A stretch of DNA of 64,000 nt from an uncultured Actinomycetes bacterium. GTDB taxonomy: Bacteria; Actinomycetota; Thermoleophilia; RBG-16-64-13. Made by a program: the position numbers and the translations under genes. The notes under the pieces were generated by a model. It did not search any database, was not told the DNA's origin, and saw nothing but the letters and a program-made list of their open reading frames with translations. Numbering within the stretch: the stretch's first letter is position 1; the number at the start of each line of letters is the position of its first letter. The DNA lies in the NCBI GenBank assembly GCA_963814365.1, contig CAWFCL010000010.1, positions 7,342-71,341 of the forward strand. The letters run 5' to 3'. Of this stretch, positions 15,537 through 37,428 are shown in pieces.

Positions 15537-15543
15537 GTCCGCG

Positions 15544-16831: not shown

Positions 16832-17536
16832 ATGGAGCCGGAGAGCAAGTGCATCCTCCTGGTCGAGGACGACCCGACCATCTCCGACCTCCTGGCCTAC
16901 AACCTGACCCGCGCCGGATACGAGGTGCTGCAAGAAGGCAACGGTCGCGCGGGGCTCGAATCGGCCCTCAATCACCAGATAGACCTGGTGCTCATGGACC
17001 TCATGCTCCCCGGGCTGGACGGCATGACGGCGGCCAAAGAGGTCCGCCGGCGCAAGCCGGACGTCCCCATCATAATGCTCACCGCTCGCGGAGAGCGCGA
17101 GACCATCTTGGAGGGCTTCGAATCCGGTGCCGACGACTACGTGACCAAGCCGTTCGACCTGGACGTGCTGCTGGCCCGCATAGCCGCGCGCCTGCGGCGC
17201 AGCCCGTCCGCGTCGCCGCCGGCCGAGGCGGCCGCGGCTCCCCTGGTGATAGAAGACCTGACGCTGGATAGCGACGCCCACGAGGCGCACACCAGTCTGG
17301 GTAAGATCGCCCTCAACCCAAAGGAGCACGACCTCCTCGCCCTGCTGCTGTCTCGGCCCGGCCATCTCTTCCCTCGCGAGGAGATAGTCCAGAAGGTCTG
17401 GCACCAACGCTACATGCCGGCCTCCCGTACGCTCGACGTGCATGTGCGCCACGTGCGCGCCAAGCTCGAGGAGATACAAGCCAAAGTCACCATCCTCGCC
17501 GTTCGCGGCGTGGGTTACAGGCTGGGGCCAGTCTGA
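16832..17536 (+). CDS. OmpR/PhoB-family response regulator (Pho-type by context)
   Basis: ATG at 16832 with GAGCGGAGG RBS. Receiver ILLVEDDPTISDLL...DLVLMDLMLPGLDG...TKPF. Winged-helix C-terminus LRTLDVHVRHVRAKLE...VRGVGYRL. Confidence 0.9.
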   Translation: MEPESKCILLVEDDPTISDLLAYNLTRAGYEVLQEGNGRAGLESALNHQIDLVLMDLMLPGLDGMTAAKEVRRRKPDVPIIMLTARGERETILEGFESGADDYVTKPFDLDVLLARIAARLRRSPSASPPAEAAAAPLVIEDLTLDSDAHEAHTSLGKIALNPKEHDLLALLLSRPGHLFPREEIVQKVWHQRYMPASRTLDVHVRHVRAKLEEIQAKVTILAVRGVGYRLGPV

Positions 17537-21563: not shown

Positions 21564-22709
21564 TTACTGAGCAGAGTACTGCTTGACCAGCTCGTTGACC
21601 TTATCCATGATCTCTTGAGAGGGAAGCTTCGACGCGTAGTCGGTGACCCACTTGTCCAACACCGGCTGCACTGCCGTCTTCCACAGGGCCTTGTCGTCGT
21701 CGGTCAGCACGTAGATGGAGCCACCAGCGGCCTCAGCTGCCGCCACGTCGGCCGCATAGTTATCGCCCGTCTCGTTGACAGCCACGTTGTCGTTGTTGTA
21801 CTCGACCGACTGCTCCAAGCCACTTGCATCCAGGAACATCTGTTGAATCGTGGTGGGTAGGCTGTCCCACTTCTCCTTGTTCATGGCAAGGATGAACATC
21901 CGATACTGAAGATCGGCCTGGGTGAAGTCAGTGGCCCAAGTATTGGCGCCCGTCACGTTCATGTACGCCCAAGAAAGGAAGATGCCGTCGAAAGGCACGA
22001 CCAAGTCTGGGGTCTTCTGAAGACTGTTCGTCTTGGTATCCCAGTAGACGAACGGGGGCACTTCCGTATCGACCGGGTTGGCACCCAAAGCGGCCATAGT
22101 GTCGTGCTCGGCCGAACCGGCCGACCTAAAGTTCATGCCGACCATGTCGGAGGGTGTATGCACCGGCGCCAGCCCGCAGTACTCAGAAGGAGTCAGGCTC
22201 ACGAGCCCCAGCATCTTGACGTCCTTCAGTTCGTCCGCCGCGTACTCGTTGAGGATATCCCACATGACCCTGGTAGCTACTTCGGGGCTCGGGAACAGCA
22301 TCGGCAGATAGGCCAACTCAAAGACTGGGAGTTCTCCTGGGACGAACTCCGTCGAAATCAGAGTCAGGTCGGCTTCACCGGCAATAAGATTCGGAAACTG
22401 CAGTGCTTCCTCGTAGAGTGCACTGTCCGGATACTCCGTGATGGTTATCCGGCCATTGGACCCGTCTTGCACGGCCGCCATCCACGGCATGAGATACGTG
22501 GAGTACAGGCTCGCCATCTGAGACATGGCGTGCGAGAAGATGAACTCGTAGTTCTCTCCTGTATCCGGGATAGTAACGGTCGTAGTCGGCGCCTCTGTGG
22601 TACTCGTAGTGGTCTCTTCGGTGGTGCCGCAGCCCACCGCCGCGAAGGCCACCAACCCTAGGATAAGGGCAACGGTCAGAACCATACCGATCCATCTCGC
22701 CTTCTTCAT
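21564..22709 (-). CDS. TRAP-type (DctP-like) solute-binding lipoprotein, orphan (no DctQM adjacent)
   Basis: ATG at 22709 preceded by AAGGAGGAGGAGGA. Lipobox AAVGCGTT. DctP-like stretches: ITITEYPDSALYEE...LIAGEADL...FELAYLPMLF...GMNFRSAGS. Confidence 0.65.
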   Translation of the reverse strand: MKKARWIGMVLTVALILGLVAFAAVGCGTTEETTTSTTEAPTTTVTIPDTGENYEFIFSHAMSQMASLYSTYLMPWMAAVQDGSNGRITITEYPDSALYEEALQFPNLIAGEADLTLISTEFVPGELPVFELAYLPMLFPSPEVATRVMWDILNEYAADELKDVKMLGLVSLTPSEYCGLAPVHTPSDMVGMNFRSAGSAEHDTMAALGANPVDTEVPPFVYWDTKTNSLQKTPDLVVPFDGIFLSWAYMNVTGANTWATDFTQADLQYRMFILAMNKEKWDSLPTTIQQMFLDASGLEQSVEYNNDNVAVNETGDNYAADVAAAEAAGGSIYVLTDDDKALWKTAVQPVLDKWVTDYASKLPSQEIMDKVNELVKQYSAQ

Positions 22710-22840
22710 ATCCTCCTCCTCCTTTGCCTTGCCCACAGACTGAAACGACTGTGTGGACTGTGATTCAGTCAGAGTAGGGGGCTATGATGAAAGGCAGATG
22801 AAAGAATGAAGTCGATCCCAGCCGGCTGTTGAGGCCCGGT

Positions 22841-24262
22841 CTAGTCCGTCCCTCTCGGCAGAGTGACCGTGAACGTGGAGCCCTCGCCCTCGCGGCTGTG
22901 GGCTGTCAGTGCCCCCATGTGGTTCTCGGCGATCTGCTGGGCAAGGGCTAGGCCCAGGCCTGCCCCAGGGGTCGAACGCGAAAGGTCGCCTCTGTAGAAG
23001 CGCTCAAAGATGTGGGGCAGCCGCTCGGCCGCTATCCCCACGCCCGTGTCGATTACCTCGACCACCACGCTGCCCTGTCTTGAGAATACAGAGACTGTGA
23101 TCCCGCCCCGGTCAGTAAACTTGATCGCATTCTCCACCAGGTTCACCAAGAGCCTTATCAGACTGTCGCTGTCACCCCGGACGATGAGGCCGGGCTCCAG
23201 CCGGCACTCCACTGTCAGCTCCTTGGCCTGTGAAAGCGGACGCAACGCCTCGCACACGTCATGCACCAGACTCGTCACGTCCAAGGGCGTGAACTCGGTG
23301 GCCGCAGCCCGGCCGCTGCGCGCCAACTCCAGCAATCTCTCCACCAGGGCGCGTAGTCGCGCGGCTTCGTCAGCCAGGTCATCCAGAGCCTGCTCGTAGT
23401 CCGCCGCCGCGCGTGGCTCCGACCTCACCACTCCGAGTATGGCTTCCATAGCGGCCAAGGGCGTACGCAGTTCATGAGACGCGTCGGCCGCGAACCGGCG
23501 CTCTCGCTGAAACGACTGGTCGAGCCGTTCGAGCATCTCATCAAAAGTAGAGGCCAAGCAACCGACCTCGTCACCGGATTCCGAGAGGTCCAACCTAGCC
23601 GATAGATCCTGCGCAGAGATACGTCTGGCGGTCTTGGTCATCGCACCCAGGGGCGCGAGGGCGCGCCTAGCTACCAGGTAGCCCACGAGACCAGTCACCA
23701 GCGCCACTACTCCGCCGCCTATCAGGAGGGCATCAAGCAGGCTACTCATAGCCTGCTTCAGAGATTTGGAGTCACGCAGAGCCTGGACGAACCCCACTAC
23801 CTCGCCGCCTCGCACCAAGGGCATCGTGTAGACACGATAGTCGCGACCGCTGACCTCGTCGACGGTGTACGAGAAGGCGCTCGTGCCGCTACGCACGGCT
23901 GCGAGAGCGGCCGGGTCCAACGGCAGGCTCCCCCATACCCCATAGCCCGCTACAACTCTCCCGGCAGTATCAAGATACTTGATCGAGTCACCCTGGGCGA
24001 GCAAGACCTCCAGCTCCAGGTTCACCTCCTCCATGCTCTCTGTGATGACAAGCTCTCCCTCCGCCACACTGACGTCCGAGGAGGCAAGTAAAGCACTGAC
24101 CTGGAGCGCATCATCGAAAGTGCGGAGCAGCGAGCGCTCCACCTGAAAGTACGCAAAGACGCCAAACACCAGCAGCGCCACCAACACTAGAGCGGCCGCC
24201 CACAGGCCTAGACGGGTTCGCAGCGAGCGAACGCGTGGCAGAGACAGCTTCGTCAGCCGCAC
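22841..24262 (-). CDS. membrane sensor histidine kinase (2 TM, HAMP, HisKA, HATPase_c)
   Basis: H-box FAADASHELRTPLAAM, N-box LVNLVENAIKFT, G-boxes DTGVGI and GAGLGLALA. Confidence 0.9.
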   Translation of the reverse strand: MRLTKLSLPRVRSLRTRLGLWAAALVLVALLVFGVFAYFQVERSLLRTFDDALQVSALLASSDVSVAEGELVITESMEEVNLELEVLLAQGDSIKYLDTAGRVVAGYGVWGSLPLDPAALAAVRSGTSAFSYTVDEVSGRDYRVYTMPLVRGGEVVGFVQALRDSKSLKQAMSSLLDALLIGGGVVALVTGLVGYLVARRALAPLGAMTKTARRISAQDLSARLDLSESGDEVGCLASTFDEMLERLDQSFQRERRFAADASHELRTPLAAMEAILGVVRSEPRAAADYEQALDDLADEAARLRALVERLLELARSGRAAATEFTPLDVTSLVHDVCEALRPLSQAKELTVECRLEPGLIVRGDSDSLIRLLVNLVENAIKFTDRGGITVSVFSRQGSVVVEVIDTGVGIAAERLPHIFERFYRGDLSRSTPGAGLGLALAQQIAENHMGALTAHSREGEGSTFTVTLPRGTD

Positions 24263-24272
24263 GCCGGACGCT

Positions 24273-24956
24273 CTAGCTCTTCGGCCCGGCGGTGAACTGG
24301 TAGCCGATACCCCTTATGGTCTGGATCAGCTTCGGCTCAAAATCGTCGTCCATCTTTCTCCGCAGAGTACGGACGTACACGTCCACGGCATTCGATTGAT
24401 GAAAGACATTGTAGTCCCACACGTGCTCGGTGATCATGGTGCGAGTCAATACTCGGCCGGCATTGCGCATCAGATACTCCAATATTGCGAACTCCCGGGC
24501 CGAGAGAACGATGTCCTTGCCCGCCCGAGTGACCTGATGCTTCGAAGGATCCAAGGAGAGGTCGGCGATGCTGAGAGTCGTACTCCGGGAGCCATCCGTG
24601 GCCCGTCGCGCTAGCGCGCGCAGCCGCGCCAGAAGCTCCTTCATGGCGAAGGGCTTGACGAGGTAGTCATCCGCTCCCGCGTCGAGACCGGCTACGCGAT
24701 CATCGACTGTGTCCCGAGCGGACAGCATGAGAACCGTGGCTTTCATCCCCCGCTTGCGTATCTCCCTGCACACCGTGAGACCGTCCACCTCCGGCAGCAG
24801 GATATCGAGGATCATAGCATCATAATCTGCCTTCTCTACCCAGTCCAAGGCCTCCGAGCCCGTATACGCAACATCTACGGCATAACCCGCTTCTTCCAGC
24901 CCCCGTCGCAGATAGGCCGATATCTTCCGTTCGTCTTCGACAAGAAGGACTCTCAT
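24273..24956 (-). CDS. OmpR-family DNA-binding response regulator
   Basis: MRVLLVEDERKI...DAMILDILLPEVDG...VKPF, with winged helix VDVYVRTLRRKMD...IRGIGYQF. Confidence 0.95.
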   Translation of the reverse strand: MRVLLVEDERKISAYLRRGLEEAGYAVDVAYTGSEALDWVEKADYDAMILDILLPEVDGLTVCREIRKRGMKATVLMLSARDTVDDRVAGLDAGADDYLVKPFAMKELLARLRALARRATDGSRSTTLSIADLSLDPSKHQVTRAGKDIVLSAREFAILEYLMRNAGRVLTRTMITEHVWDYNVFHQSNAVDVYVRTLRRKMDDDFEPKLIQTIRGIGYQFTAGPKS

Positions 24957-25051
24957 GGTCGGACATTATCGCTGAAACATGAAGAATAGATGAAGACATG
25001 AGCCGTGCCGACAGGTCGGCTCGGTGTCCAGCGACGATCCCCCAGTCGTTC

Positions 25052-26500
25052 CTACCCCGGCAGCGACACCGAGAAGGTCGAACCCACACCCTCTTCACTC
25101 GCCACGTCGAGGCGTCCACCGGCTCGCTCGACCAGGCGCTTGGCTATGGTCAGACCCAGCCCGCTGCCCTCCAGCCCTCGCGTCTGCGGACGTTTCTCGC
25201 GGAAGAACTCGGTCAGCACTCGGTCGAGGTTCTCACTGGAGATGCCTATGCCGGTGTCCTTGACGTCTATGCGCACCCACTCCCCGTCACGCAGTGCGGT
25301 CACGGTCACAGAGCCGCCGTCGCGGTTGTACTTCACCGCGTTGCCCACCAGATTCGAGAGCACCAGCTCCAGATCGCCGTCTGGCAATAGCACAGGCGGA
25401 AGCTCCGGCTCCAGATCCGTCCGCACGGTGATGTCGCGGGCAGCGAGCCTATCCGCCTCGAGGCCCAAGACCGCGTCCACGGCCGAGGCGACGTCCTGTA
25501 GTCGTGGCTCGGTTTGGGGCTGCTCGCTGCGCGAGAGCGACAGCAGGTCGCCGATGAGCTGCACCAGGCTGTCGATGCGGTCCTCCGCCCGGCGCAGCAT
25601 GGGCAAGTAGCTATCCAGGTCCTCACCCAGGCTCTTGTCGGTGGCCACCTCGATCATCGCGCGCACGGCTCCTAACGGCGACTTCATCTCGTGCACCATG
25701 GTACGGATGAAGCGCTCCTTCTCCATGGCCAGACGCCGGACCTGGGAGATGTCCGACAAGGTAAGGATGCGCCCCAGCGCAGTGCCGTCCTCGGCCCTGA
25801 AGGTGACGATGCTGGTCATGTAGGTCTCGTCCCCGATGGCGAGCTGGCCCACAGTGCGATCCTTCTGGGGAGCCGCCAGAGCCTCGCTCAGCGAGGACAA
25901 GGGACCTTCCTGCAGCAGTTCGACGGCGGACCGACGGAGCGCCTCTTCTTCGGGAAGCCCAAGCAAGACGGTCATGGCCCGGTTGGCGAGCACCACGTCT
26001 CCGTCGCGGTTCACCACCATCACTGCGTCACGCAGCGAGCTGACCAGAGAGTGCGTCTGAGTCTTCTCCTCGGCCAGGGCCAGCAGCCCGGCTTCGTGTT
26101 CCACGCGGAGCCGCTCGGCCTCGTCGCGCGCCCGTTTGTGCCTCACCAGGGTCTCGACCACGCCCAGCAGGTCGTCAGGCAGGAACGGCTTGGGCAGGAA
26201 GAAGTCGACGCCCTCCCGGGTGGCGGCGATGGCGGTGTCGATGTTCGCGTAGGCGGTGATCATGCAGGTCATCAACTGCATGCCCTCGCTCTTGATGGCC
26301 TGTTGGATGGTGAGACCGTCCATGTCGGGCAGACGGTAGTCCAGCAGTCCGACGTCGTAGTCGCTGCTGCGCAGGAGCGTGAGGGCCTCCTCGCCCGTAG
26401 CCGCCTCTTCTACCTCGTACCCTTCGATCTCGAGTATCTGGCGGATGCCGGAGCGCACGCCGTACTCATCGTCTACCACTAGGATGCGGGCCGTGTTCAT
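25052..26500 (-). CDS. hybrid receiver-PAS-histidine kinase
   Basis: ATG at 26500 (MNTARILVVDDEYGVRSG) overlaps the upstream gene's stop. It has a receiver domain, a PAS-like segment, H-box MVHEMKSPLGAV, N-box LVGNAVKYN and G-box GSGLGLTIA. Confidence 0.9.
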   Translation of the reverse strand: MNTARILVVDDEYGVRSGIRQILEIEGYEVEEAATGEEALTLLRSSDYDVGLLDYRLPDMDGLTIQQAIKSEGMQLMTCMITAYANIDTAIAATREGVDFFLPKPFLPDDLLGVVETLVRHKRARDEAERLRVEHEAGLLALAEEKTQTHSLVSSLRDAVMVVNRDGDVVLANRAMTVLLGLPEEEALRRSAVELLQEGPLSSLSEALAAPQKDRTVGQLAIGDETYMTSIVTFRAEDGTALGRILTLSDISQVRRLAMEKERFIRTMVHEMKSPLGAVRAMIEVATDKSLGEDLDSYLPMLRRAEDRIDSLVQLIGDLLSLSRSEQPQTEPRLQDVASAVDAVLGLEADRLAARDITVRTDLEPELPPVLLPDGDLELVLSNLVGNAVKYNRDGGSVTVTALRDGEWVRIDVKDTGIGISSENLDRVLTEFFREKRPQTRGLEGSGLGLTIAKRLVERAGGRLDVASEEGVGSTFSVSLPG

Positions 26501-26926
26501 GCCGGGACGGTCACAGAGTGATCGTCGGAAGCGCCGCCCAGGAACTCCTGAGCTATGCCCAGCAACTGCTTGCCGGTGGCGGGCTTGTCTACGAACCGGT
26601 CCAAGCGGGTCCATGACAAGAGTCCCTTGCCCTCTTGGTCGAAGCGCTCACCGGTCTCTCTCGCGACCCCGCTCAACATCACCAGCGGCACGTGGGCGAA
26701 CTGCTCGCGCTTGCGTATCTCGTAGGCCAGGCGGAAACCGCTGTCGTAGCGCTCCATCATCAGGTCGATGAAGATCAGGTCGGGAGTGTTCGTCGCCAGG
26801 AACTCGTAGAGCTTCTTCGCTGCTCTCGACGGTGTGCACGGTGTGACCGCGGCTGCCGAAGAACGCTGACTGGGCAAGCAAGAAGTCCCGGTCGTCATCT
26901 ACGAAGAGGATGTTCCAGCCGCTCAT
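26497..26926 (-). pseudogene. single-domain CheY-like response regulator, one frameshift as assembled
   Basis: MSGWNILFVDDDRDFLLAQSAFFGSRGHTVHTVESS|(shift ~26815-26825)|AKKLYEFLATNTPDLIFIDLMMERYDSGF...PLVMLSG...DKP. Both ends overlap their neighbours by ATGA. Confidence 0.8.
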
Positions 26927-28947
26927 ACGGGGCTCCTTTCGCCGCCTGCACGGACCATGGGTATCTCGACATGAAAAGTGGTGCCGGCACCGGGTTCTGA
27001 ATCGAACCAGATGTTGCCTTGGTGCATCTTGACGATGCCGTACGAGATGGGCAGCCCCAGACCCGTACCCTTGCCGATACTCTTGGTGGTAAAGAAGGGT
27101 TGAAAGACCTTGTCAGCGGCCCCGGCGCCTATGCCGCTACCTTGATCGGACACGCTGAAGCGCACCCGCCCAGTATCGAGGTGCGTGCGGGCGATCACTC
27201 GTACCTCGCCCGAGCTACCCTCCATGGACTCCACCCCGTTCTTGATCAGGTTGACGAGCACCTGCGTCATCTGGTCGCGATCGAGGTCCGCGTACGATCC
27301 CGGCGTGACATCCACGACTATCTCGACCTCGCGGTCGGGACCCGGCGGCAGATTGCAGGCCGCTCCATCAGCGGCCGACGCCACCAACTCCTCCAACGAC
27401 ACGGACTCGATGCGAACGCGACTCTGCCGGGCGAAGTCCAACAGGCTGCCGATGATCTTCTTGCAGCGCTCCGACTCCTCAGACATCAGCTTGAGATCGT
27501 GGTCCAGGTCGCCGCGATCCTGTAGCTTGCGCTGCAGTATGTGGGAGTAGAGCAGGATGGTGCTGAGAGGATTGTTGAGCTCATGAGCCACGCCCGCCGC
27601 CATCTGGCCCATCGACGCAAGCTTCTCGCTGTTGATGAGGTGGCGATGCACGTCGCGCAGGTTGTTCCACGGCACGTTCAGCTCGCTGCAGACCCGTTCA
27701 GACTGGTCGATTATGAACGGTAGACACATGGCTTCCTCGGCCATGCCTTCGTAGACTGCCCTGGCTTTTGTCCGGCACGTCGCGTATCCGCAGGCGCCGC
27801 AATTGAGTTCGTCCTCGGGGAAGAACTTGTTGGTGTGAGCCAAGATCTCGCGGATCTCTTCCTCAGTGGGACCCACCGACCTCTGGTCGTCAGGCTCGAA
27901 GCGGCGAATCAGCGACAAGGACGCGCCGCCGGACTCGTAGGCCGGCATGGCACCTTCGTCTTGGCGATGCCGGCTGGCCTCGGCGAATTCGGCCACGCGG
28001 CGCCGGCGGGTCACCCCAGGCTCGTCGCTCCCGGCGCCGGGTCCCGCATAGCAGCCTCGGCACATCAGGGCCTCTACCAGTAGGGGGCCGGCCAATTTGC
28101 TGGAGAGGCTATCCAGCGTCTCCACCGTCTCGTCCTTGCCACTCACCACCACCAGGCGGGGGTCCATGACACCGTCCCCTATGCCGGCGCTCTCGAACAT
28201 GCCGCCCGGGACCGGATAGATGCGAGCCGTGCCCGCATACGGCGGGTCAAAATCCTTCGGCGGCGCTAGGGCCGGGTCCGCACCCCGCGCGGCCAGGACA
28301 CGGTGCACCTCGTCCAACGTCAACACCTCATCCACGACCCCGACGATCTCTGGGTCCAGTATCTCCGCCTTTTTGGCCACGCAGGGGCCGATGAAGACGC
28401 AACGTACATCCTGCCCGTAGCGCCGCTTGACCGCCAGGGCGGTCGCCACCATGGGCGAGACCAGGGGCATGATGGAGGCTGTGAGCTCCGGGTGATACTT
28501 GCGCACGTAAGACACGACCGCCGGGCAAGCGCTTGCGATGTGTAGACCCGTCGGGTCGCTCGCCAAGAGGTCGCGGCAGGCTTCGTTCACTAGGTCGGCT
28601 CCGTACGCCACCTCGACCACATACGTGAAACCGGCCTTGCGTAGAGCGCCGACGATCTGTTCCGGCGGCGCCGTGAACCCTACCGGGAACGAGGGAGCCA
28701 ACAGCGCGGCGGCGATGCCGCGATCGAGAAGGGCGAGAGTGCCCTCGATACTGCTCGTGTACGCTTTGGCACCCTGCGAGCACACCATGGTGCAGTTGCC
28801 ACAGCTGATGCAGCGGTCGGCCACCACCGAGGCCTGGCCGTCCTCGATGCGGATTGCCTTGGCCGGGCAGTCCCGCACGCAGGTGTAGCAGCGACGACAG
28901 TTCTGTTTGATAGTGGTTATGACGCCGGTCATGGTCTCTTGGCTCAC
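26923..28947 (-). CDS. sensory [FeFe]-hydrogenase-like domain (HydS-type) fused to a histidine kinase
   Basis: 674 aa intact ORF. It contains two 4Fe-4S ferredoxin motifs (CRRCYTCVRDCP, CISCGNCTMVC). The H-domain motifs are ASACP (canonical TSCCP), GPCVAKKAE (MPCxxKxxE) and EALMCRGCYAGPG (ExMxCxxGCxxG). CGACGYATC-x16-C forms a Cx2Cx4Cx16C motif. This is followed by HisKA (AAGVAHELNNPLSTI) and HATPase_c (NLIKNGVES, DQGSGI, GTGLGLPISY). Confidence 0.85.
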   Translation of the reverse strand: MSQETMTGVITTIKQNCRRCYTCVRDCPAKAIRIEDGQASVVADRCISCGNCTMVCSQGAKAYTSSIEGTLALLDRGIAAALLAPSFPVGFTAPPEQIVGALRKAGFTYVVEVAYGADLVNEACRDLLASDPTGLHIASACPAVVSYVRKYHPELTASIMPLVSPMVATALAVKRRYGQDVRCVFIGPCVAKKAEILDPEIVGVVDEVLTLDEVHRVLAARGADPALAPPKDFDPPYAGTARIYPVPGGMFESAGIGDGVMDPRLVVVSGKDETVETLDSLSSKLAGPLLVEALMCRGCYAGPGAGSDEPGVTRRRRVAEFAEASRHRQDEGAMPAYESGGASLSLIRRFEPDDQRSVGPTEEEIREILAHTNKFFPEDELNCGACGYATCRTKARAVYEGMAEEAMCLPFIIDQSERVCSELNVPWNNLRDVHRHLINSEKLASMGQMAAGVAHELNNPLSTILLYSHILQRKLQDRGDLDHDLKLMSEESERCKKIIGSLLDFARQSRVRIESVSLEELVASAADGAACNLPPGPDREVEIVVDVTPGSYADLDRDQMTQVLVNLIKNGVESMEGSSGEVRVIARTHLDTGRVRFSVSDQGSGIGAGAADKVFQPFFTTKSIGKGTGLGLPISYGIVKMHQGNIWFDSEPGAGTTFHVEIPMVRAGGERSPV

Positions 28948-30662
28948 TTGACCGCGGTAGTCTCTGCGAGCAGAGAACCGCTCCGGTCCACATAGCTACG
29001 ATGCAGCAGCCGGTGCGAGACCTCACCCAGCGGCCTGCCCAAGTACTCCTCGTACAGGGAGGCTACGCTCTGGTTCTGGTGCGAAGCGCGGGTCAGTGCC
29101 TGATCGTCGGTGTCGCGCAACTGATCGAGGCGCTTACGCAGATCGCCTGCTCCCGCCCCGTATGGCTGGCCCCCACCACCGGCGCACCCGCCCGGGCAGG
29201 ACATCACCTCGACGAAGTGCATGTCACGGAGCGTCTCCTCCAGAGCCTGACCGAGACGTCCCAGACCGTTCACCACCGCCAACTTGAGCGTGGTGTCGCC
29301 GGCCTCCACTGTGAAGCACTTGACCCCTTCCGGGCCGCGCGCCTCGGTAAGCGGACCTTCGGGCACCTCTGCCCCCACCATGGTGGCCGCTGTCCTGACC
29401 GCGGCCTCCATCACGCCTCCGGTGCCGCCGAACAGCCGGGCCGCGCCCGTCGCCTCGGCGAAGGGCGCGTCAAGAGGCATCCGCTCCTCACATCTGTCGA
29501 AGTCGATGCCGAACCGCTGCCATAGATCGCTCAGCTCACGGGTGGTGAGCACATAGTCCACGTCGCCCAAATCCTGAGCCTCGTACTTCTTGGCGGTGCA
29601 GGGCATCAGCGAGAGGATCACCAGCCGCTTGTGCCCTATGCCGGCGAGCTGGGGGTAGATCTCCTTGATGAGCGCCCCCGCCATCTGCTGGGGCGACTTG
29701 CAGCTGGACATGTGCGGTATCAGGTCCGGCCGATGCAACTCGACGTAGTTGACCCAGGCCGGAGAACAACTGGTGAACATGGGGAGCGGTCCGCCGTTCT
29801 GCAGTCTCTCGACCAGTTCGGTTGCCTCCTCCATGATGGTGAGGTCGGCCGCGAACCCGGTATCGAACACGGCAGCCACGCCGATGCGCTTGAGCGCAGC
29901 GGTCAGGTGTTCCAACATGGCGGGGACCGTGGGGGACTTGCTGCGCGCCGCCGCCAAGGTGGCCGGCACCGCCGGAGCGATCTGCGCCACCACGACCGTG
30001 TCGGGGTCGGCCAAGGCTGCGACCACCTCGTCCACGTGACTACGCTCCATCAAGGCTCCGGTGGGACAGACGCGCACGCATTGGCCGCAATAGGTGCAGC
30101 CCGAGACGTTGATGCCCTTGTAGAAGCCCGGACCCACTTGGGTGCGAAAGCCCCGATCGATGAAGTCGATGGCCCCGATACCCTGGATCTCATGGCACAT
30201 GGTCACACAACGACCACATAGCACGCACTTGTTGGGGTCGCGCCATATCGAGGGCGACGAGATGTCCAGCGGCTGGTCCTTCTTCATGCCCACGTACTGT
30301 CTGGGACGGGCGCCCACTTCTCGCGACAACTCGGCCAACTCGCAACTGCCGGAGCGGTGACACACCAAGCAGTCTTGCGGATGGTTGGCGACCAGAAGTT
30401 CGACTATTGCCCGGCGGGCCTTTAGGACGCGCGGCGTGTGCGTCTTGACAGACATGCCGTCCGCAGCGGTCAGCGTGCAGCTGGTCTGCAGCTTGGGCGA
30501 ACCTTCGACCTCCACCACGCACAGACGGCAAGAGGCGGAGGGACCGGGCGCCCCGTCCAAGGCACAGAGATGGGGGATATCTATGCCGGCTTTGCTCGCT
30601 ATCTTGAGTACCGTCTCGCCCGGCGCGAACTCGAGGACTCTTCCGTTGATGGTGATGCTCAC
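28944..30662 (-). CDS. hydA: [FeFe] hydrogenase catalytic subunit HydA (NuoG-like N-terminus)
   Basis: GTG start at 30662, 6 nt after AGGAGAG. N-terminal 2Fe-2S and His-ligated 4Fe-4S region (CRLCVVEV, HPQDCLVCHRSGSCEL), then 2x4Fe-4S (CVLCGRCVTMC, CTYCGQCVRVCP). H-cluster motifs are FTSCSPAW (non-canonical), MPCTAKKYE and EVMSCPGGCAGGGGQP. The tracked 701-aa ORF includes a spurious N-terminal extension over hydB. Confidence 0.9.
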   Translation of the reverse strand: MSITINGRVLEFAPGETVLKIASKAGIDIPHLCALDGAPGPSASCRLCVVEVEGSPKLQTSCTLTAADGMSVKTHTPRVLKARRAIVELLVANHPQDCLVCHRSGSCELAELSREVGARPRQYVGMKKDQPLDISSPSIWRDPNKCVLCGRCVTMCHEIQGIGAIDFIDRGFRTQVGPGFYKGINVSGCTYCGQCVRVCPTGALMERSHVDEVVAALADPDTVVVAQIAPAVPATLAAARSKSPTVPAMLEHLTAALKRIGVAAVFDTGFAADLTIMEEATELVERLQNGGPLPMFTSCSPAWVNYVELHRPDLIPHMSSCKSPQQMAGALIKEIYPQLAGIGHKRLVILSLMPCTAKKYEAQDLGDVDYVLTTRELSDLWQRFGIDFDRCEERMPLDAPFAEATGAARLFGGTGGVMEAAVRTAATMVGAEVPEGPLTEARGPEGVKCFTVEAGDTTLKLAVVNGLGRLGQALEETLRDMHFVEVMSCPGGCAGGGGQPYGAGAGDLRKRLDQLRDTDDQALTRASHQNQSVASLYEEYLGRPLGEVSHRLLHRSYVDRSGSLLAETTAVK

Positions 30663-30672
30663 GGCGACTCTC

Positions 30673-32664
30673 CTAGGCGACGAGGGCGATGGATTGTTTG
30701 GGACAAGCGTCGACACAGGCGCCGCAACCGATGCAGCGGTCGACCACGATGTAGTGAGCGGCCTTGCGCTCACCCACGATCGCCCCCGACGGGCACTGCT
30801 TCCTGCACGCCCCGCACCCGGTGCACGTCGCGTTATCCACGGCATAGATACGGAGCCCCTGACACACACCGGCAGGACAGCGGTCCTCCATGATGTGCGC
30901 CTCGTACTCATCGCGGAAGAAGCGGAGTGTGGACAGCACCGGATTGGCGGCCGACTGTCCCAGACCGCATAGCGACGTGTCCTTGATGGTCTCGGCCAAC
31001 TCTTCCAGATGGAGCAGTCCGCGGAAGCGCTCCAACCGCCCCACCTCATCGCCCACCGGGCGCTCCGTGAGAGCGGTCAGGATCTCGTGCATGCGGGTGG
31101 TGCCCTCGCGACAGGGGGCACACTTGCCACAAGACTCGTTGCGGATGAACTCCATGAAGTACTTGGCCACGTCCACCATGCAGGTGCGCTCGTCCATGAC
31201 CACCATGCCGCCCGAACCCATCATGGCGCCCAATTCCTGCAGCTTGCCGTAGTCGGTGGCCACGTCCAGGTGAGCTTCGGGGATGCAGCCCCCGCTGGGG
31301 CCACCTATCTGCACGGCCTTGATATCGTGACCCTCGGGTGCGCCCCCGCCGATGCCGCACACCAGGTCGCGCAGGGGCAGACCCACCGGCACCTCCACCA
31401 GACCGGTGTTGCGCACCCTGCCACTGAGCGCGAACACCTTGGTCCCAGCGGCCTCACCCAACCCCAGGTCGCGGAACCACTCCGCCCCGTTGCGCAGGAT
31501 GCCGGGGATGTTGGCCAGAGTCTCCACGTTGTTGAGCACGGTGGGCATGCCGTGAAGACCCGCTACCGCCGGGTACGGCGGCCGCGGCCGCGGCATACCC
31601 CGTCCGCCTTCGATGCTCGCCAAGATGGCGGTCTCTTCGCCACAGACAAACGCCCCGGCGCCCTGCTTGATCACCACATCAAAGTCGGTGAGACTGCCCA
31701 GGATGTTGGCGCCCAGGAGCCCGGCCGCCTTGCACTGCGCGATAGCGCTCTGCAGACGTTCGATAGCCAAGGGATACTCGGCGCGACAGTAGATGTAGCC
31801 CTTGCTCGCCCCGATAGTGTAGGCCGCGATGAGCATGCCTTCGAGCACGCGGAAGGGGTCACCCTCCAAGACTGCCCGGTCCATGAAAGCACCGGGGTCA
31901 CCCTCGTCGGCGTTGCAGATGAGGTACTTGGTGGCGGCCACTGTATCCAGGGCCACCTTCCACTTCTGCCCCGTGGGGAAGCCCGCCCCACCCCGTCCGC
32001 GCAGTCCGGACTCGATGACCAGGTCGCATACCTCTTCGCGGGTCATGGTGGTGAGCGCTCGGGCCGCTGCGGCGAAGCCGCCGGCGGCCAGGGCCGCATC
32101 CAACGAGGCGGGATCTACCAGCCCACAGTTGTCCAACACCACCCGGGTCTGGCGACTGAAGAACGGGGTGTCCATGACCAGGGGCACGTCCTCGAACCCC
32201 TCTGCCTGACCGTACCGTCCGTACAAGAAGCGATTGCGCAGGTCGCGCTTCTCAAAGACGGCCTCCAGGAACTCCCCGACGTTCTCGGGGCTCAGGTCGC
32301 AGTACGACAGGCGCGGACCGTCGTCGAGTCTGACGTCCACGAAGACCTCGCGCTGGCAGAACCCCACGCAACCGACCTCCACCAGGCTCGCCTGCACTGA
32401 GTGTTCCCGCAGATACGCTTCGATCTTGTCGATGACATGCAGGGCACCGTTCGCGCGGCCGCAGGTGCCGGCGCCGACGAAGAGCACGGTGCCCTCACCG
32501 CCACGCCGCGCGCTCTCCAGGCGCCGCCCCCTCAGGGCGCGGCACGCTTGGTCCGTATGACAGAGTGGTCCCGTCTCGACGCAGGCGATCAGATCTCTGC
32601 AAGGGCGTTCCGGCGAGTGCGTGCACTCATCACAGCAGGCCTCGACCAGCCGCGTCGCGCTCAT
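30673..32664 (-). CDS. hydB: NADH-binding FMN/Fe-S subunit HydB (NuoF-like) of bifurcating hydrogenase
   Basis: GLRGRGGAGFPTGQKW (FMN), ESCGKCAPCREG (N3 cluster), a thioredoxin-like 2Fe-2S N-domain (GTCGRANG ... GCVGFCQRE), and C-terminal 2x4Fe-4S (CTGCGACRKQCP, CIGCGACVDACP). Confidence 0.95.
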   Translation of the reverse strand: MSATRLVEACCDECTHSPERPCRDLIACVETGPLCHTDQACRALRGRRLESARRGGEGTVLFVGAGTCGRANGALHVIDKIEAYLREHSVQASLVEVGCVGFCQREVFVDVRLDDGPRLSYCDLSPENVGEFLEAVFEKRDLRNRFLYGRYGQAEGFEDVPLVMDTPFFSRQTRVVLDNCGLVDPASLDAALAAGGFAAAARALTTMTREEVCDLVIESGLRGRGGAGFPTGQKWKVALDTVAATKYLICNADEGDPGAFMDRAVLEGDPFRVLEGMLIAAYTIGASKGYIYCRAEYPLAIERLQSAIAQCKAAGLLGANILGSLTDFDVVIKQGAGAFVCGEETAILASIEGGRGMPRPRPPYPAVAGLHGMPTVLNNVETLANIPGILRNGAEWFRDLGLGEAAGTKVFALSGRVRNTGLVEVPVGLPLRDLVCGIGGGAPEGHDIKAVQIGGPSGGCIPEAHLDVATDYGKLQELGAMMGSGGMVVMDERTCMVDVAKYFMEFIRNESCGKCAPCREGTTRMHEILTALTERPVGDEVGRLERFRGLLHLEELAETIKDTSLCGLGQSAANPVLSTLRFFRDEYEAHIMEDRCPAGVCQGLRIYAVDNATCTGCGACRKQCPSGAIVGERKAAHYIVVDRCIGCGACVDACPKQSIALVA

Positions 32665-33118
32665 GCCGCCTCATCCTCGGCCGCGGACCCGCTGACCGCG
32701 TCCAGTAGCGCGTCGAGCTTCTCCACGGTCAGGTGCCCGTGGAACTCACCGTCCAATTTGATCACCGGAGCGATGGAACAGGCCCCGAGACACGCCACGC
32801 TCAACACCGAGAACCGGCCGTCGGCGGAGTTACCGTCGGAACGTAGCTTGAGCCTCCGCTGGAGGTGCTGCGCCAAGGTCAGGCTCTGCTTCACGTGGCA
32901 CGCCGTCCCCCTGCACACCTCTATGACGTGCTCACACAGAGGTACAAAGCGGAACTGGTTGTAGAAGGTGGCAACGCCGTACACACTGGCGACGGGAGTG
33001 CCCAAAGCCTCGGCCAACTCCGACCATAGCGGATTGCGCGAGGATACCCTTCTCTCTCTTGTAGCTCTTGCAGAAGGGGTATCAGGTCGTCCCGGCTGAG
33101 GTCGCTGCGTCCCTGCAA
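32661..33118 (-). pseudogene. hydC: 2Fe-2S subunit HydC (NuoE-like), one frameshift as assembled
   Basis: MQGRSDLSRDDLIPLLQELQEREGY|(shift at CCC 33047-33049)|SRNPLWSELAEALGTPVASVYGVATFYNQFRF...CRGTACHV...CLGACSIAPV. The stop overlaps the hydB start (ATGA). Confidence 0.85.
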
Positions 33119-33136
33119 GCATCGCCGCGACCGTGC

Positions 33137-33580
33137 TCACACCCGCCCGCCATTCTCGGGCAAGACGGCCCGCTCCGGGCTAGGACGGTCGAGCAGTTCC
33201 TTCACTTTGTCGGCAAGCTCGGCCAACTTCACCGGTTTCTGCATGAAGGTCTCTACCGGCAGGTCCTGCCCCAGCAGAGAGGCGATGACCTTCTCGCGGA
33301 CGTCTGTCTGCACGTTGAAGCCGGAGAGCATGAGGATAGGCATGTCGTGGGTCGGACCGTCGGTCTTGAGCGCACCGGCGAACACCATGCCTTCCTCGTC
33401 GTAGTCCATCATGACGTCCAAGATCATCAGATCGGGGCGTTTCTCGACGATGCGAGCGTAGGCCTCCTTGCTGTTTCCCGCCGTGACCACGGCATAGCCG
33501 CGCGCTGTTAGAAAGGCCTCCACCGACGCCACCAGGTCGGGGTCGTCGTCTACCACCAGGATCAACTTCTTGTCCATCAC
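33137..33580 (-). CDS. single-domain CheY-like response regulator
   Basis: KKLILVVDDDPDLVASV...DLMILDVMMDYDEEG...MLSG...QKPV. 147 aa. Confidence 0.9.
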   Translation of the reverse strand: MMDKKLILVVDDDPDLVASVEAFLTARGYAVVTAGNSKEAYARIVEKRPDLMILDVMMDYDEEGMVFAGALKTDGPTHDMPILMLSGFNVQTDVREKVIASLLGQDLPVETFMQKPVKLAELADKVKELLDRPSPERAVLPENGGRV

Positions 33581-33628
33581 AGCTCCTCTGACTCGCGGAT
33601 GTCGCTCTTGCTCAATGGGCGCGATCTA

Positions 33629-34275
33629 TCAGTCTTCACGGCGGCTCAAGAACGAGAGCTTCTCGAGCTTGGCCGAGATGTCCATCGGTTCGATGAAGCA
33701 GTCCGGCGGGGCGCTTATCATCTTGGGTACGAAGTTCATGAACCCGCGCACCCCAGCATCCGCCGCTCTGTCCACTAGCTCCTGCAGACCGTCGGCCTTG
33801 GCAGCCAGAACGAGTATGCGGACGTCCATCTCTGCTATCACACTCTCCAGGTCGTCAAGCGAGTAGCACCGACAACCAGCGAAAACCCGTCCGATCTTGT
33901 CAGGGTCGGTGTCGAAGGCCGCGACCACGCGGAAGCCCCGCTCCTCAAACCCTCGATAGGAGAGGAGAGCCTGACCCAGGTAGCCCACGCCCACCACCGC
34001 GATGTTCTGCACCACGTCGGTGCCGACGATGCGGCTGATGGTGAGCGACATCTCCCGCACGTCATAGCCTTTGGAGATGTTGCCGAAGCTGCCGCAGACT
34101 GGCCAGATCGCGCCGCAGTTGGGCGGGCGTGACTCCCACCAGACGCCGCCAGACGATGAGAGTGTACGAACTGCACCCCATCGTGGCCGAGTTCTTCGAG
34201 AGCCCGGCGATAGGCACTCAACCGTTCGATGGTCCGGAGCGAGACACCGCGATCATTGCGAGAAGAGCCTGTCAC
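33629..34275 (-). pseudogene. rex: redox-sensing transcriptional repressor Rex, two frameshifts as assembled
   Basis: RTIERLSAYRRALEELGHDGVQFVHSHRLAA|(~34140)|LVGVTPAQLRRDLAS|(~34100)|CGSFGNISKGYDVREMSLTISRIVGTD..NIAVVGVGYLGQALLSY...RGFRVVAAFDTDPDKIGR. This gives a winged helix plus an NAD(H) Rossmann domain. Confidence 0.85.
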
Positions 34276-34312
34276 AGTGAGTCGACACCTTGTCCCTTTG
34301 TGACACTTGTCA

Positions 34313-34330
34313 CTGTGAAGTCTTTCACAA
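34313..34330. promoter_or_regulatory. Rex operator upstream of rex
   Basis: CTGTGAAGTCTTTCACAA matches the known Rex box TTGTGAA-N4-TTCACAA at 17/18 positions. A second palindrome, GTGACA-CT-TGTCAC, lies at 34300-34313. Confidence 0.55.
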
Positions 34331-34371
34331 CCGTGGGCGTGCTGTCAAGCGGATTGCCCAAGAGAACTCGG

Positions 34372-35404
34372 CTAGGGCGCCACTGCCACCTTGACCAACG
34401 ACCGGTCGGCGAGCGAGACGTTCGAAGCCCCCCTCTACCAGGTCCTCCAGCGGGATCACGTCGGACAGCATGCCCGTGGCCTTCAACCGACCGTCAGCAA
34501 GGTACTCGACGCAGAGACTGCGCTTCGTCCGCAGTGTAGGCGAGGCTTGACACGAGACGGGTCTCCTGAAGGATCAGCATAGACACCGCCACCGGCACCG
34601 GCTCCGGACCGTGTCCCAGGACGACCACCTGACCGCCTCGCTTGGTCAGGCCTAGGCAGGTCTCCAGCGACTTGGCCGCTCCGGCGCACTCGAAGACCAG
34701 ATCGGCGCCCACGCCGCCGTAGAGCTGGGCCAACTTCCCTCAGGGAAGTCGCCTTCGACGGCCGGGTCGAGCGCTAGGTCGGCGCCGAACCTGACGGCGA
34801 GCTCGCGCTTCTCCGGGACTACGTCCAACGCGGTCACGTGTCTTGCTCCGCCCAGCTTGAGCAGTTGAACGGCCGAGAGACCGATCGAGCCCGCACCGGA
34901 GACCACCGCGCTGTCGCCGATCTTGAAGGCAGACTGCTGGATCCCGCGCAGGGCCACGGCCATGGAATCCATCGAGTACGGCGTCCTCAAAAGGCAGGTG
35001 GTCGGGCAACGGATGCAATTGGCGCACGTCTCTGACCAACAGGTACTCGGCCATACCGCCGTCCTGCCGCAGACCGGGGGTGTTCTCGAACCCGTACGCG
35101 CAGAGGTTGGGCCGCCCGTGCAGACACTGGTAGCAGTGCGCCGCAGGGACCCGGAGGTGCGGCCACCGCCACCCGGTCTCCCACCTTGAAGCCCTCGACC
35201 CCTGGCCCACCTGGTCGATGACTCCCACATTCTCGTGACCGGGAGTGATACCCGGAGGGAGGATCCCGGCGAAGTACATCTCGATGTCGGTACCGCATAT
35301 GCCGCAGAGAGCGATCTGGACCACCACTTCGCCCGGACCCGCCTCGGCTGAGGTCGGTCGATAAGGCGGAATGATTTCGTCCCCTCGTAGAGCCAGGCCT
35401 TCAT
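34372..35404 (-). pseudogene. zinc-dependent alcohol dehydrogenase (MDR family), at least 5 frame changes as assembled
   Basis: Pieces are spread over three frames: MKAWLYEGTKSFRLIDRPQP / GEVVVQIALCGICGTDIEMY..GHENVGVIDQVG / VEGFKVGDRVAVA / CYQCLHGRPNLC...GGMAEYLLV / VVSGAGSIGLSAVQLLKLGGARHVTALD / ADLVFECAGAAKSLETCL...GGQVVVLG / ...LVKVAVAP*. Confidence 0.8.
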
Positions 35405-35918
35405 AGCCGACCTCCTCGCAGTCGGTGCCGGCTGATCGGAGACTTAGCAGGCAACTCGACCGTGGCCCCACCCACCAACCAGATGTCACCGACGATGGTC
35501 TCGATCCACCGGGCGAGGTCCACGAGGAAGGCACCGTCGCAGTCGCACTTGTCGTATACGTAGGACTTGACCAGCGCCGGGTCGCCGGTGAGGCCGCGCG
35601 CGTTGCAGAACCTGTCCTCATGTGAGGGACCTTAGCCAGGAAGTCCTCAAGCCAAGGGTTGGCCGGTACCGGCTTGCCGGCGGCAGCAGAGGCCACGGCG
35701 GGCATGACGCCCCACCGTATGTTATGCAGCCAACCGTGGTAGCCCATCCAGTTGTTGACATGGCGCGCAGCGGTACCCGCCCACTCTGACAGAGATGGGC
35801 TGGATATGTCAATAGGTATCTCGATTGTTCCATTAGGAGGTTGGCGCGCGCGACACCGAAGTCGCTTGATCAGCACGTGGGCTAGAATCCTACGGACACT
35901 CGAGATAGCCAAGGACAT
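35403..35918 (-). pseudogene. hypothetical protein, at least one frameshift; stop overlaps the ADH start
   Basis: NWMGYHGWLHNIRWGVMPAV...NPWLEDFLAKV|shift|SHEDRFCNARGLTGDPALVKSYVYDKCDCDGAFLVDLARWIETIVGDIWLVGG.... I recognise no family, and the start is uncertain. Confidence 0.3.
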
Positions 35919-37428
35919 GTGACATCGACAGACTCACCTCCCAGAAGCTGGACACCGAGCTAGGACGTCATCGCTGGCAGATACTCATCCTGAGTTCTGT
36001 CGGCATGTTCATGGGGACCATGCTCACCACGATCGTCGCGGTAGCCCTACCCAATCACATGGCGCCCGATCTGGGGCTCACCTACTCGCAGGCGCTGTGG
36101 GTGCAGGCCATCTACCCGCTCACCATGGCCATCTGCCTCATCCCGGTCGGCCGACTGGCGCAAAGGGCGGGCTTGCTGCGCTTCTACTGCTGGGCGTTGC
36201 CATCAACGGCGGCTTCTCGATAGCCTGCGGTCTTGCCTTCTCCGGCCCCTTCCTGGTGGCCATGCGCTGCCTCCAGGCTAGCGGCGGAGCGATGATGTCC
36301 GCTACCGCCATGGCCCTGGTCACTACCGTCTTCCCTCCACAGGAGCGAGGACGCGGACTGGGCTTCAACGCCATGGCAGGCTACCTAGGCCTCACAGTGG
36401 GCCCGCCCCTCGGAGGCGTGATCGTAAGTCACGTGAGTTGGCGCTGCGATCTTCTTCATCCACATCCCCCTGATCCTTGGGACGTTGGTCTGGGGTTGGT
36501 TCTTCCTGGGGGCCGAGCGCCGCGATCGCACAGCCGCAAACGAGCCCACGTCCTTCCGGGGTGGTGCACGTTTGGACCTGACCGGGACCGTGCTCCTGGC
36601 CGCCGGCGCTGACGTGCCTCATGGTGCCGCTCATCTCGGTACCGTTCTGGGGTTGGACGAATCCGCTGACGCTGGGGCTGCTCGGCGGTTTCTTGCTGCT
36701 ATGGTCGTCTTTGTATGGGTGGAGTTGCGCGTGCATGATCCAGTGCTCGATCTCAATCTTGTGCGCAAGAACCGTGTCTTCGCGGCCGGTACCATAGCGG
36801 CCCTGCTCAACTACGCCGCGATATACGGAGTGACCACGCTGACGGCCGCCTTTCTCGAGATCGTCGAGGGAGTCTCCGCTCGCAGGCCGGCCTCGTGTTG
36901 CTCGCCTCCCCCGTGTTCATAGTCGCGCTCTCTGCCGTCTTCGGCAGACTCTCCGACCGCATCGGCCAACGTGTCCCCGCGACCGGGGGCATGCTCCTCG
37001 CCGGTGTGGGCACGATGCAATTGGGCCTGCTACCCTCGCCCGCTCCGCTTTGGCGGATCGTCGTGGCCCTCTGTTTCATCGGCTTCGGTATGGCCGCTTT
37101 TAGCTCGCCCAACAGCTCCTCCGTGATGGGCGCGGTGAAGCGCTCGGAACTGAGCCTGGCCTCGGGATTCCTGGGGACGATGCGCACGGGCGGTCAGGCG
37201 ATGTCCATAGGGCTGCTGGGCGCCATAGCCGCCTCCAGCCTGGGACCCACCGGTGGCCGTGTGCTCTTTCTGGGCGAAAAGGCCAGCGCGGCGGCGGCAG
37301 AGTCTTTCTCGGGAGGCTACCGCACGGCCATGCTCGTAGCTGCCGGGCTGGCGTTCGTGGGTGCGATGGTCTCTATGGTGAGGGGGCCTCGGGAGACTAC
37401 TGTCCGACGGGAGACTCCTGCTGAGTGA
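35919..37428 (+). pseudogene. MFS transporter (drug:H+ antiporter-like), at least 5 frame changes as assembled
   Basis: Consecutive pieces in different frames: RWQILILSSVGMFMGTMLTTIVAVALPN... / LLLLGVAINGGFSIACGL...LQASGGAMMSATAMALV / AIFFIHIPLILGTLVWGWFFLG / ...VFAAGTIAALLNYAAIYG / VFIVALSAVFGRLSDRIG...GFGMAAFSSPNSSSVMG. Confidence 0.75.

Follow-up and report, generated by a model that had tools for sequence, protein, structure and literature searches.

The window, 64,000 nucleotides (nt) of contig CAWFCL010000010.1 from an uncultured bacterium of the Thermoleophilia, carries a minus-strand cluster of eight genes coding for the repressor Rex, the three subunits of an [FeFe] hydrogenase (HydABC), a hydrogenase-like sensor fused to a histidine kinase (HydS-HK), two CheY-like single-domain response regulators and a second histidine kinase with a receiver (REC) and a PAS domain. 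The explanation we favour, at a probability of about 0.65 for the whole including the sensor circuit, is a single operon of an anaerobic, Thermoleophilia-like actinobacterium that is repressed by its own first gene product. Rex would occupy an operator over the -10 region and leave the DNA upon a rise of the NADH/NAD+ ratio, then the whole unit would be transcribed. HydABC would, as judged by homology, dispose of NADH and reduced ferredoxin as H2, and a signalling module would be co-produced with the enzyme. An earlier prediction, made from the letters of this stretch (the original prediction), had proposed a coupled operon and had named the conservation of gene order in advance as a check able to refute it. 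This refutation clearly fails: in 20 other loci the genes stand in the same order, their proteins being 57-87 % identical and the operator taking the same place. The arrangement is far more than chance. The features are as follows.

25052..34348, minus: eight-gene cluster, from the Rex operator to the receiver-PAS-kinase
34343..34348, minus: -35-like hexamer TTGACA of the operon promoter, read from the sequence
34313..34330, minus: Rex operator TTGTGAAAGACTTCACAG, one mismatch to TTGTGAANNNNTTCACAA, covering the -10 region
34301..34316, minus: second Rex-like box AGTGACAAGTGTCACA, overlapping the first, one mismatch in the 10-nt core
33629..34275, minus: rex, NADH/NAD+-sensing repressor (Pfam PF06971 in the N-terminal frame, PF02629 in the C-terminal frame)
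33137..33580, minus: cheY-1, single-domain response regulator (Pfam Response_reg, 4.5e-17)
32661..33140, minus: hydC, NuoE-like [2Fe-2S] subunit (Pfam 2Fe-2S_thioredx, 6.5e-34)
30673..32664, minus: hydB, NuoF-like FMN/NADH subunit with C-terminal 2x[4Fe-4S] (Pfam Complex1_51K, NADH_4Fe-4S, two Fer4)
28944..30662, minus: hydA, catalytic [FeFe]-hydrogenase subunit (Pfam Fer2_4, NADH-G_4Fe-4S_3, Fe_hyd_lg_C, Fe_hyd_SSU)
26923..28947, minus: hydS-HK, sensor-kinase fusion (Pfam Fer4, Fe_hyd_lg_C, iron-sulfur (FeS) domain PF04060, HisKA, HATPase_c)
26497..26926, minus: cheY-2, single-domain response regulator (Pfam Response_reg)
25052..26500, minus: REC-PAS-HisKA-HATPase kinase, a Rec-controlled histidine kinase (Pfam; start at M39 of the long open reading frame, ORF)
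25000..25022, minus: GC-rich hairpin GAGCCGACCTGTCGGCACGGCTC followed by a T-rich tract, a weak candidate terminator of the operon

Gene order, Rex operator and frame breaks

All eight gene assignments were backed by Pfam and by matches to solved structures. Pfam agreed with the original prediction on the identity and minus-strand order of every gene; its count of nine has to be corrected to eight from rex to the receiver-kinase. A gap of 48 nt separates rex from cheY-1, and the later junctions are 4-nt overlaps or spacers of at most 11 nt. ATGA overlaps were confirmed at hydC/hydB (32661..32664), hydS-HK/cheY-2 (26923..26926) and cheY-2/receiver-kinase (26497..26500). The overlap claimed for hydA/hydS-HK holds only as a GTGA (28944..28947), if the GTG start is chosen; the alternative start ATG 28932, 11 nt past the hydA stop, is used by the relative L001, and the database entry for HydS-HK (P0001, 669 amino acids, aa) begins there. 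A GTGA overlap of cheY-1 and hydC (33137..33140) had not been listed before. The hydB/hydA spacer is 10 nt, with a ribosome-binding site AGGAGA overlapping the hydB stop, and hydA starts at GTG 30662, not at the ATG 31049 of the long ORF. A simple scan for promoters and terminators had no match inside the cluster, nor at the operon's own promoter or end. The proposal of a coupled operon is thus borne out by a compact conserved unit, by the lack of promoter- or terminator-like sites inside it and by a conserved Rex operator over the promoter.

A search with HydS-HK returned at least 120 database clusters of the same domain architecture with at least 61 % identity, their named sources being mostly Thermoleophilia. 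The eight genes were present in the same order in 18 species-representative genomes and on the contigs L001 and L127; the 18 genomes are labelled Actinomycetota, Thermoleophilia or Gaiellales, with two labelled Deltaproteobacteria. Variants of the arrangement occurred in more distant loci. Three Bacteroidales loci (L020, L021, L041) contain hydCBA, hydS-HK, cheY and the receiver-kinase with rex at the 3' end, and a locus from a metagenome-assembled genome (MAG) of the Melioribacteraceae (L040:5887-17896) presents hydCBA, hydS-HK, cheY, the receiver-PAS-kinase, another cheY and a second hydCBA. In the actinobacterial locus L007 (L007:2149-6896), rex, cheY-1, hydS-HK and the receiver-PAS-kinase are directly adjacent; neither hydCBA nor cheY-2 was found within the 15 kb examined. 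Genomes were also scanned with an aligned set of diverse HydS-HK proteins; the scan picked generic kinase motifs and yielded mostly unrelated kinases, and only L040 and L041 were of use.

The original prediction had placed a Rex box ahead of rex, and this operator (34330..34313, one mismatch) is the sole good match in the 64-kb window. In 546 kb of related loci, the core TGTGA-N6-TCACA matched exactly 15 times, one match to a locus and each of them 35-120 nt ahead of rex; about 0.5 matches of a 10-base palindromic core would be expected by chance in a sequence of that length, by our own estimate. Five more loci had a core with one mismatch at the same place. A TTGACA hexamer lies 10-13 nt upstream of the first operator half-site in 20 of 20 loci, therefore the operator covers the -10 region, and the spacer itself is TATAAT-like in several loci. 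This geometry fits repression by promoter occlusion, which would render rex autoregulated. The tandem, overlapping Rex-like boxes of the window (the second at 34316..34301) were otherwise seen only in L003. The Bacteroidales loci carry tandem inverted repeats TGTTA-N6-TAACA some 70-90 nt upstream of hydC (L020:5765-5800; L041:5338-5375). In L020 the identical 16-mer is found again between hydS-HK and cheY-2 (L020:12135-12150), a hint that the signalling genes and rex there form a further unit under Rex control. DNA binding by repressors of the Rex family is relieved by NADH. We infer the release step proposed here from the conserved operator together with this established behaviour of the family.

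Alignment of the DNA to four relatives revealed two 1-nt insertions in rex, near 34143 and 34095 and about 49 nt apart. A further 1-nt insertion is located in cheY-2 near 26807; none of the three sits in a long homopolymer. The original prediction had implied intact genes throughout. As sequenced, rex spans three frames, with the DNA-binding and the NAD(H) domains in different ones. Removal of the two inserted bases gave a Rex of 214 aa that aligned over its full length to 5zz5, 3wg9 and 1xcb (E 1e-27 to 1e-33), and its GVGYLG motif, recognised by eye in the translation, fits the GxGxxG of Rossmann NAD(H) folds. Likewise, cheY-2 without its inserted base encodes a 142-aa receiver with every functional residue.

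Similar damage was observed in the vicinity. Next to the Rex operator on its upstream side, the gene of a zinc-type alcohol dehydrogenase (34372..35933, minus) is split over at least three frames, with ADH_N in one frame and the ADH_zinc_N profile positions 2-46 and 50-123 in two others. On the plus strand, 16853..19313 encodes a second OmpR-type regulator and a sensor kinase (sCache-like, HAMP, PAS, HisKA, HATPase), and this kinase gene (17305..19313) has two breaks, one inside HisKA between profile positions 20 and 30 and one that puts HATPase_c into a third frame. A plot of the GC content at third codon positions (GC3) displayed more frame switches across the window. Many related loci in long-read MAGs have their breaks in other cluster genes, and L001 and L127 have all eight genes intact. 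For these reasons, assembly errors are the most likely cause of the frameshifts in rex and cheY-2. Such errors would mislead automatic annotation of the two genes.

The breaks might instead be genuine and the locus in decay, with rex and cheY-2 as pseudogenes, a constitutively derepressed hydrogenase operon and a crippled signalling module. The position of the three frame-breaking insertions, all in regulatory genes and outside long homopolymers, would fit this explanation, as would the four large genes of the cluster (about 7.2 kb), which are unbroken. However, with a local rate of about one break per 2.5 kb by our own count, zero breaks in 7.2 kb are only mildly unlikely (about 0.05). Like frame breaks are common elsewhere in the window and, in different genes, in the long-read MAG loci, and but for the three inserted bases neither gene is interrupted, both aligning to their homologues along the whole length. 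We regard genuine decay as quite unlikely and retain the intact, Rex-repressed operon. A different case was the pair of overlapping ORFs at 12706..15554, which was considered as a frameshift and rejected: by Pfam one product is a permease and the other an ABC ATPase.

The hydrogenase and the hydrogenase-kinase fusion

The bifurcating character proposed for the hydrogenase in the original prediction agrees with the full-length matches of HydABC to structurally characterised electron-bifurcating enzymes. The best matches of HydA in the PDB were the bifurcating HydA1 proteins of Thermoanaerobacter kivui, Acetobacterium woodii and Thermotoga maritima (E 1e-122 to 1e-150). HydB had near full-length matches to the bifurcating HydB structures 7t2r, 8a6t, 7q4v and 7p5h (E 1e-172 to 1e-201), and HydB of a bifurcating [NiFe] enzyme was matched as well; two Fer4 domains occupy HydB residues 609-660, and the alignment to 7t2r_B and 8a6t_B reaches the C-terminus. 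The genes hydA, hydB and hydC are adjacent as in group A3, the Bfu family. At the level of homology, HydABC is probably of the electron-bifurcating or -confurcating type.

The H-cluster motifs of HydA were compared to the reference motifs TSCCPxW (L1), MPCxxKxxE (L2) and ExMxCxxGCxxGGGQP (L3). L2 (MPCTAKKYE) and L3 (EVMSCPGGCAGGGGQP) are present, and L1 reads TSCSPAW (within FTSCSPAW), with a serine for the second cysteine. The same variant is found in HydA1 of A. woodii (7q4v) and in all actinobacterial relatives, and a TSCSP-type L1 has been noted earlier (PMC3787301). TSCSPAW as the mark of a defective enzyme was rejected on account of its presence in A. woodii HydA1 and its conservation in all relatives. 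The locus L040 encodes one hydA of each L1 type, TSCCP and TSCSP. None of the ten largest other ORFs of the window was a HydE, HydF or HydG maturase. In HydB, the region aligning with solved HydB structures is preceded by a cysteine-rich N-terminal extension of about 55 residues (32500..32664), CCDECTHSPERPCRDLIACVETGPLCHTDQAC, which was aligned by tblastn from residue 1 in many relatives and may present an extra metal site.

HydS-HK consists of two [4Fe-4S] sites, an H-domain, a further Cx2Cx4Cx16C cluster and then HisKA and HATPase_c. The sensor part comprises the N-terminal 420 residues: two Cx2Cx2Cx3C motifs and the H-domain, then the Cx2Cx4Cx16C. In P0001 the FeS cysteines are C12/15/18/22, C41/44/47/51 and C378/381/386/403, and the H-cluster motifs ASACP, GPCVAKKAE and LMCRGC keep the four H-cluster cysteines. 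All 16 cluster cysteines and the phospho-histidine were invariant in 37 homologues. Among 71 distant homologues the cluster cysteines were invariant or nearly so, and the four H-cluster cysteines remained invariant down to about 27 % identity. Positions assigned by motif and by eye place an alanine at C299 of CpI, the proton-relay cysteine, and a glycine at M353. According to PMC8163306, groups C and D, the putative sensors, have substitutions at C299 and M353 and a C-terminal Cx2Cx4Cx16C. The original prediction of HydS-HK as a putative H2 sensor is supported by the complete H-cluster and FeS cysteines together with the sensory-type substitutions.

Among the closest known systems are the putative sensory [FeFe] hydrogenases, with HydS of T. 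maritima (M2f, group C), HydS of Thermoanaerobacter mathranii (M2e, group D) and the HydDB subtypes C1 and C3. With these HydS-HK shares the two N-terminal [4Fe-4S] motifs, an H-domain lacking the C299 cysteine and altered at the M353/M497 positions, the C-terminal Cx2Cx4Cx16C and a location beside a bifurcating group A hydrogenase. The difference lies in the C-terminus: where M2f has a PAS domain, HydS-HK has a full HisKA-HATPase core, so that sensor and transmitter form one polypeptide. In HydS-HK no PAS domain was matched by Pfam, HisKA and HATPase_c follow the FeS motif, and the kinase core is NtrB/ZraS-like, with LvrB among its PDB matches. HydS-HK is predicted to work like HydS, in another architecture than M2f. 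Upstream of the cluster in L020, the opposite strand encodes another HydS-like protein (L020:3827-5224), an arrangement reported for some Bacteroidota (PMC11406978).

Group C [FeFe] hydrogenases are listed in HydDB as putative sensors, a histidine-kinase-linked subtype included (PMC5037454). A study of 2024 named the kinase-fused group C protein beside the bifurcating hydABC "BfuT", subunit T of BfuABC, and reported such genes from Hydrogenedentota, Caldithrix abyssi and three Bacteroidota (PMC11406978). Candidate cultured carriers of this type of cluster named in that study are C. abyssi, Tenuifilum thalassicum and Perlabentimonas gracilis. The name BfuT stands for another possible function: HydS-HK would not sense H2, it would report electron flux or the ferredoxin/NADH redox state via its FeS clusters, or would ride as accessory "BfuT" on HydABC and report turnover. 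The three accessory FeS clusters and the translational coupling of the gene to hydA accord with such a role, and characterised group C enzymes keep some catalytic activity (PMC8163306). A pure FeS redox sensor, however, would have no need for the four H-cluster cysteines that are invariant to about 27 % identity, and an adjacent enzyme seems dispensable since L007 keeps rex, cheY-1, hydS-HK and the REC-kinase without hydCBA. The sensor part is also not bound to one kind of partner. It was compared to 1.84 billion cluster representatives, 820 of which matched at E <= 1e-30, and the nearest 71 (representatives of 50 % clusters) were scanned for domains: 32-34 were fused to HisKA/HATPase, 13 to PAS, ten to a sigma-54 activator and two to GGDEF. 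Fusion to many signalling outputs under retention of the H-cluster ligands gives the best computational support available for the sensor part as a sensory input domain. On this evidence a function other than H2 sensing appears unlikely, and HydS-HK is treated below as the putative H2 sensor of the operon. The ten sigma-54 fusions (within proteins P0122-P0200) contain the AAA+ module, some with a helix-turn-helix domain, and would be one-component H2-responsive transcription activators.

Receivers, second kinase and output of the signalling module

The two CheY-like receivers belong to a distinct subfamily, as paralogues with a mutual identity of 30-33 %; their identity to the third receiver is 23-26 %. 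Common to CheY-1 and CheY-2 are a D-x-MM-D/E motif and an inserted segment behind β4. In CheY-1, 24 orthologues conserve the acidic pocket, the phospho-acceptor aspartate, the Ser/Thr and the lysine; in CheY-2, 26 orthologues conserve the receiver residues. The second kinase begins with an NtrC1-like receiver whose DDE, D, T and K are retained by 26 orthologues; a PAS domain follows, then a kinase core of the VicK/WalK type. The original prediction had spoken of a multi-step phosphorelay with a hybrid kinase. No product of the cluster matched a Pfam family of Hpt domains, and the receiver of the second kinase is N-terminal. The signalling module is not a His-Asp-His-Asp relay, because the Hpt domain is absent, and an N-terminal receiver is the architecture of a Rec-controlled kinase.

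A kinase that feeds a Rec-controlled kinase, similar to LvrA and LvrB, plus single-domain receivers would fit better. In Leptospira, LvrA phosphorylates the N-terminal receiver of the second kinase LvrB, which then acts on the non-DNA-binding regulator LvrC (PMC13269768). Common to both systems is an N-terminal receiver with a conserved phospho-aspartate ahead of DHp-CA, and LvrB was matched by the kinase core of HydS-HK in the PDB search. The second kinase of the cluster differs from LvrB by a PAS domain between receiver and DHp, and its partners are single-domain receivers. The sensor of HydS-HK is joined by a helical linker to the NtrB-like core, and the redox state of the H-cluster, set by H2, would shift the balance of kinase and phosphatase activity. 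Phosphate from HydS-HK would pass to the NtrC-like N-terminal receiver of the second kinase, which would be controlled as in LvrA to LvrB; its PAS domain may add a second input. CheY-1 and CheY-2 may serve as substrates, as sinks or as protein-binding outputs.

The proposed sensing of H2 for the control of hydrogenase genes has a counterpart in the HoxBC/HupUV - HoxJ/HupT - HoxA/HupR systems, where a low-activity hydrogenase reports H2 to a histidine kinase governing hydrogenase genes. HoxBC/HupUV are [NiFe] regulatory hydrogenases of HydDB group 2b, with a metal site unrelated to that of the [FeFe] type. In contrast to the [FeFe] fusion described here, these systems keep sensor and kinase on different proteins and end in a DNA-binding regulator of the NtrC type.

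The sole DNA-binding protein conserved with the cluster is Rex, whose gene is the 5'-terminal one in Actinomycetota and the 3'-terminal one in Bacteroidales. For the output of the circuit, the original prediction had relied on an OmpR-type regulator. Its gene (24273..24956) lies on the same strand 95 nt downstream of the cluster, a distance that was read as stated, and a cognate membrane kinase follows 10 nt further downstream. As the nearest DNA-binding response regulator, with a receiver 38-40 % identical to that of the second kinase, it might be the point on which Rex, HydS-HK and the second kinase converge to control hydrogenase expression. However, the regulator has its own kinase, and in none of about 25 related loci does the pair adjoin the cluster; arginase, MMPL or other genes are found there. 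The 95-nt gap contains the GC-rich hairpin and a GATAAT placed for a leaderless OmpR transcript. Folding of the gap gave no more stability than shuffling of its sequence did (z = 0.74), the hairpin 25000..25022 escaped the simple terminator scan, and Rfam had no match in 22000..37000. The OmpR/kinase pair looks like a separate, unrelated two-component system, and its service as the output of the circuit is highly improbable. The original prediction is partly supported: right in outline, wrong on the OmpR output and on the term phosphorelay.

The output may also dispense with DNA binding. In a network of this kind, phosphorylated CheY-1 and CheY-2 would have Rex or HydABC as their direct target. 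This is conceivable because Rex is the only DNA-binding companion, a second Rex-type box precedes cheY-2 in L020, and L007 keeps rex, cheY-1, sensor and second kinase but lacks the enzyme genes. If true, Rex or HydABC itself would be the integration point of NADH/NAD+ and H2 partial pressure. We consider such a direct action quite unlikely and stay with the Rex-repressed operon, in which the sensor circuit may control hydrogenase expression.

Several points weigh against this explanation. The status as a single operon is derived from spacing and conservation. The operator spacer of the window, AAGACT, is a poorer -10 element than those of the relatives, and rex and cheY-2 are not fully translatable as sequenced. 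An AlphaFold2 model of HydS-HK was confident for the H-domain; linker and DHp residues 403-466 had a pLDDT below 50, so the model gives nothing reliable on the coupling of sensor and kinase. We know of no demonstration of H2 binding by a kinase-fused HydS or of H2-dependent signalling by any member of the putative sensory family. The proposed order of phosphotransfer was derived from family resemblance (NtrB-like kinase, NtrC-like receiver) and gene order, and no covariation between the DHp domains of the two kinases was obtainable across the orthologues, the helices being nearly invariant. Finally, the conserved unit has no DNA-binding response regulator, and either an unlinked regulator or a protein-protein effect would have to be the output of the signalling module.

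Related operons and meaning

To our knowledge, rex does not as a rule head the hydrogenase operon in Rex regulons with hydrogenase genes, and no sensor kinase is co-transcribed. Such regulons, for example that of Caldicellulosiruptor bescii (PMC6391272), resemble the present operon in the operator TTGTGAA-N4-TTCACAA and would share with it the NADH-responsive repression of H2-producing enzymes. A closer precedent is C. abyssi, where rex, hydCBA and one more gene (Cabys_3675-3679) have been interpreted as an operon derepressed at high NADH, with a candidate Rex site cTGTGAATCAATTCACAt 38 bp upstream (PMC5317091). This cluster has the organisation of sub-type V and carries the kinase-fused group C sensor BfuT (PMC11406978). 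As in the window, rex is the first gene, the Rex site is upstream and the genes of a trimeric bifurcating-type [FeFe] hydrogenase are next. Judged by the published description only, the differences are the cheY between rex and hydC, the cheY after the sensor and the second receiver-kinase, none of which is mentioned for C. abyssi.

Rex-hydCBA-sensor operons, kinase-fused sensory hydrogenases (BfuT) and the HydDB group C are already published, and the window itself is one more instance of a widespread cluster. Within the searchable papers we found no discussion of the conserved cheY genes, the Rec-controlled second kinase and the lack of a co-travelling DNA-binding response regulator. The signal output of putative sensory [FeFe] hydrogenases is an acknowledged question (PMC8163306). 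The fusion of sensor and kinase allows the question of H2 signalling to be addressed with one purified protein, and the fixed partners, two CheY-like receivers, the Rec-controlled kinase and Rex, make up a short list of candidate interactors. The cluster marks uncultured Thermoleophilia/Gaiellales of soil and sediment as probable fermentative H2 producers with a hydrogenase tied to the NADH status.

Outside the cluster, at 44244..49153 and 58622..61099, the window encodes two molybdoenzymes of the xanthine-dehydrogenase/aldehyde-oxidase family, together with a protein in which an FeS domain of the dihydropyrimidine-dehydrogenase type is combined with a CCG domain and a flavin-binding one.

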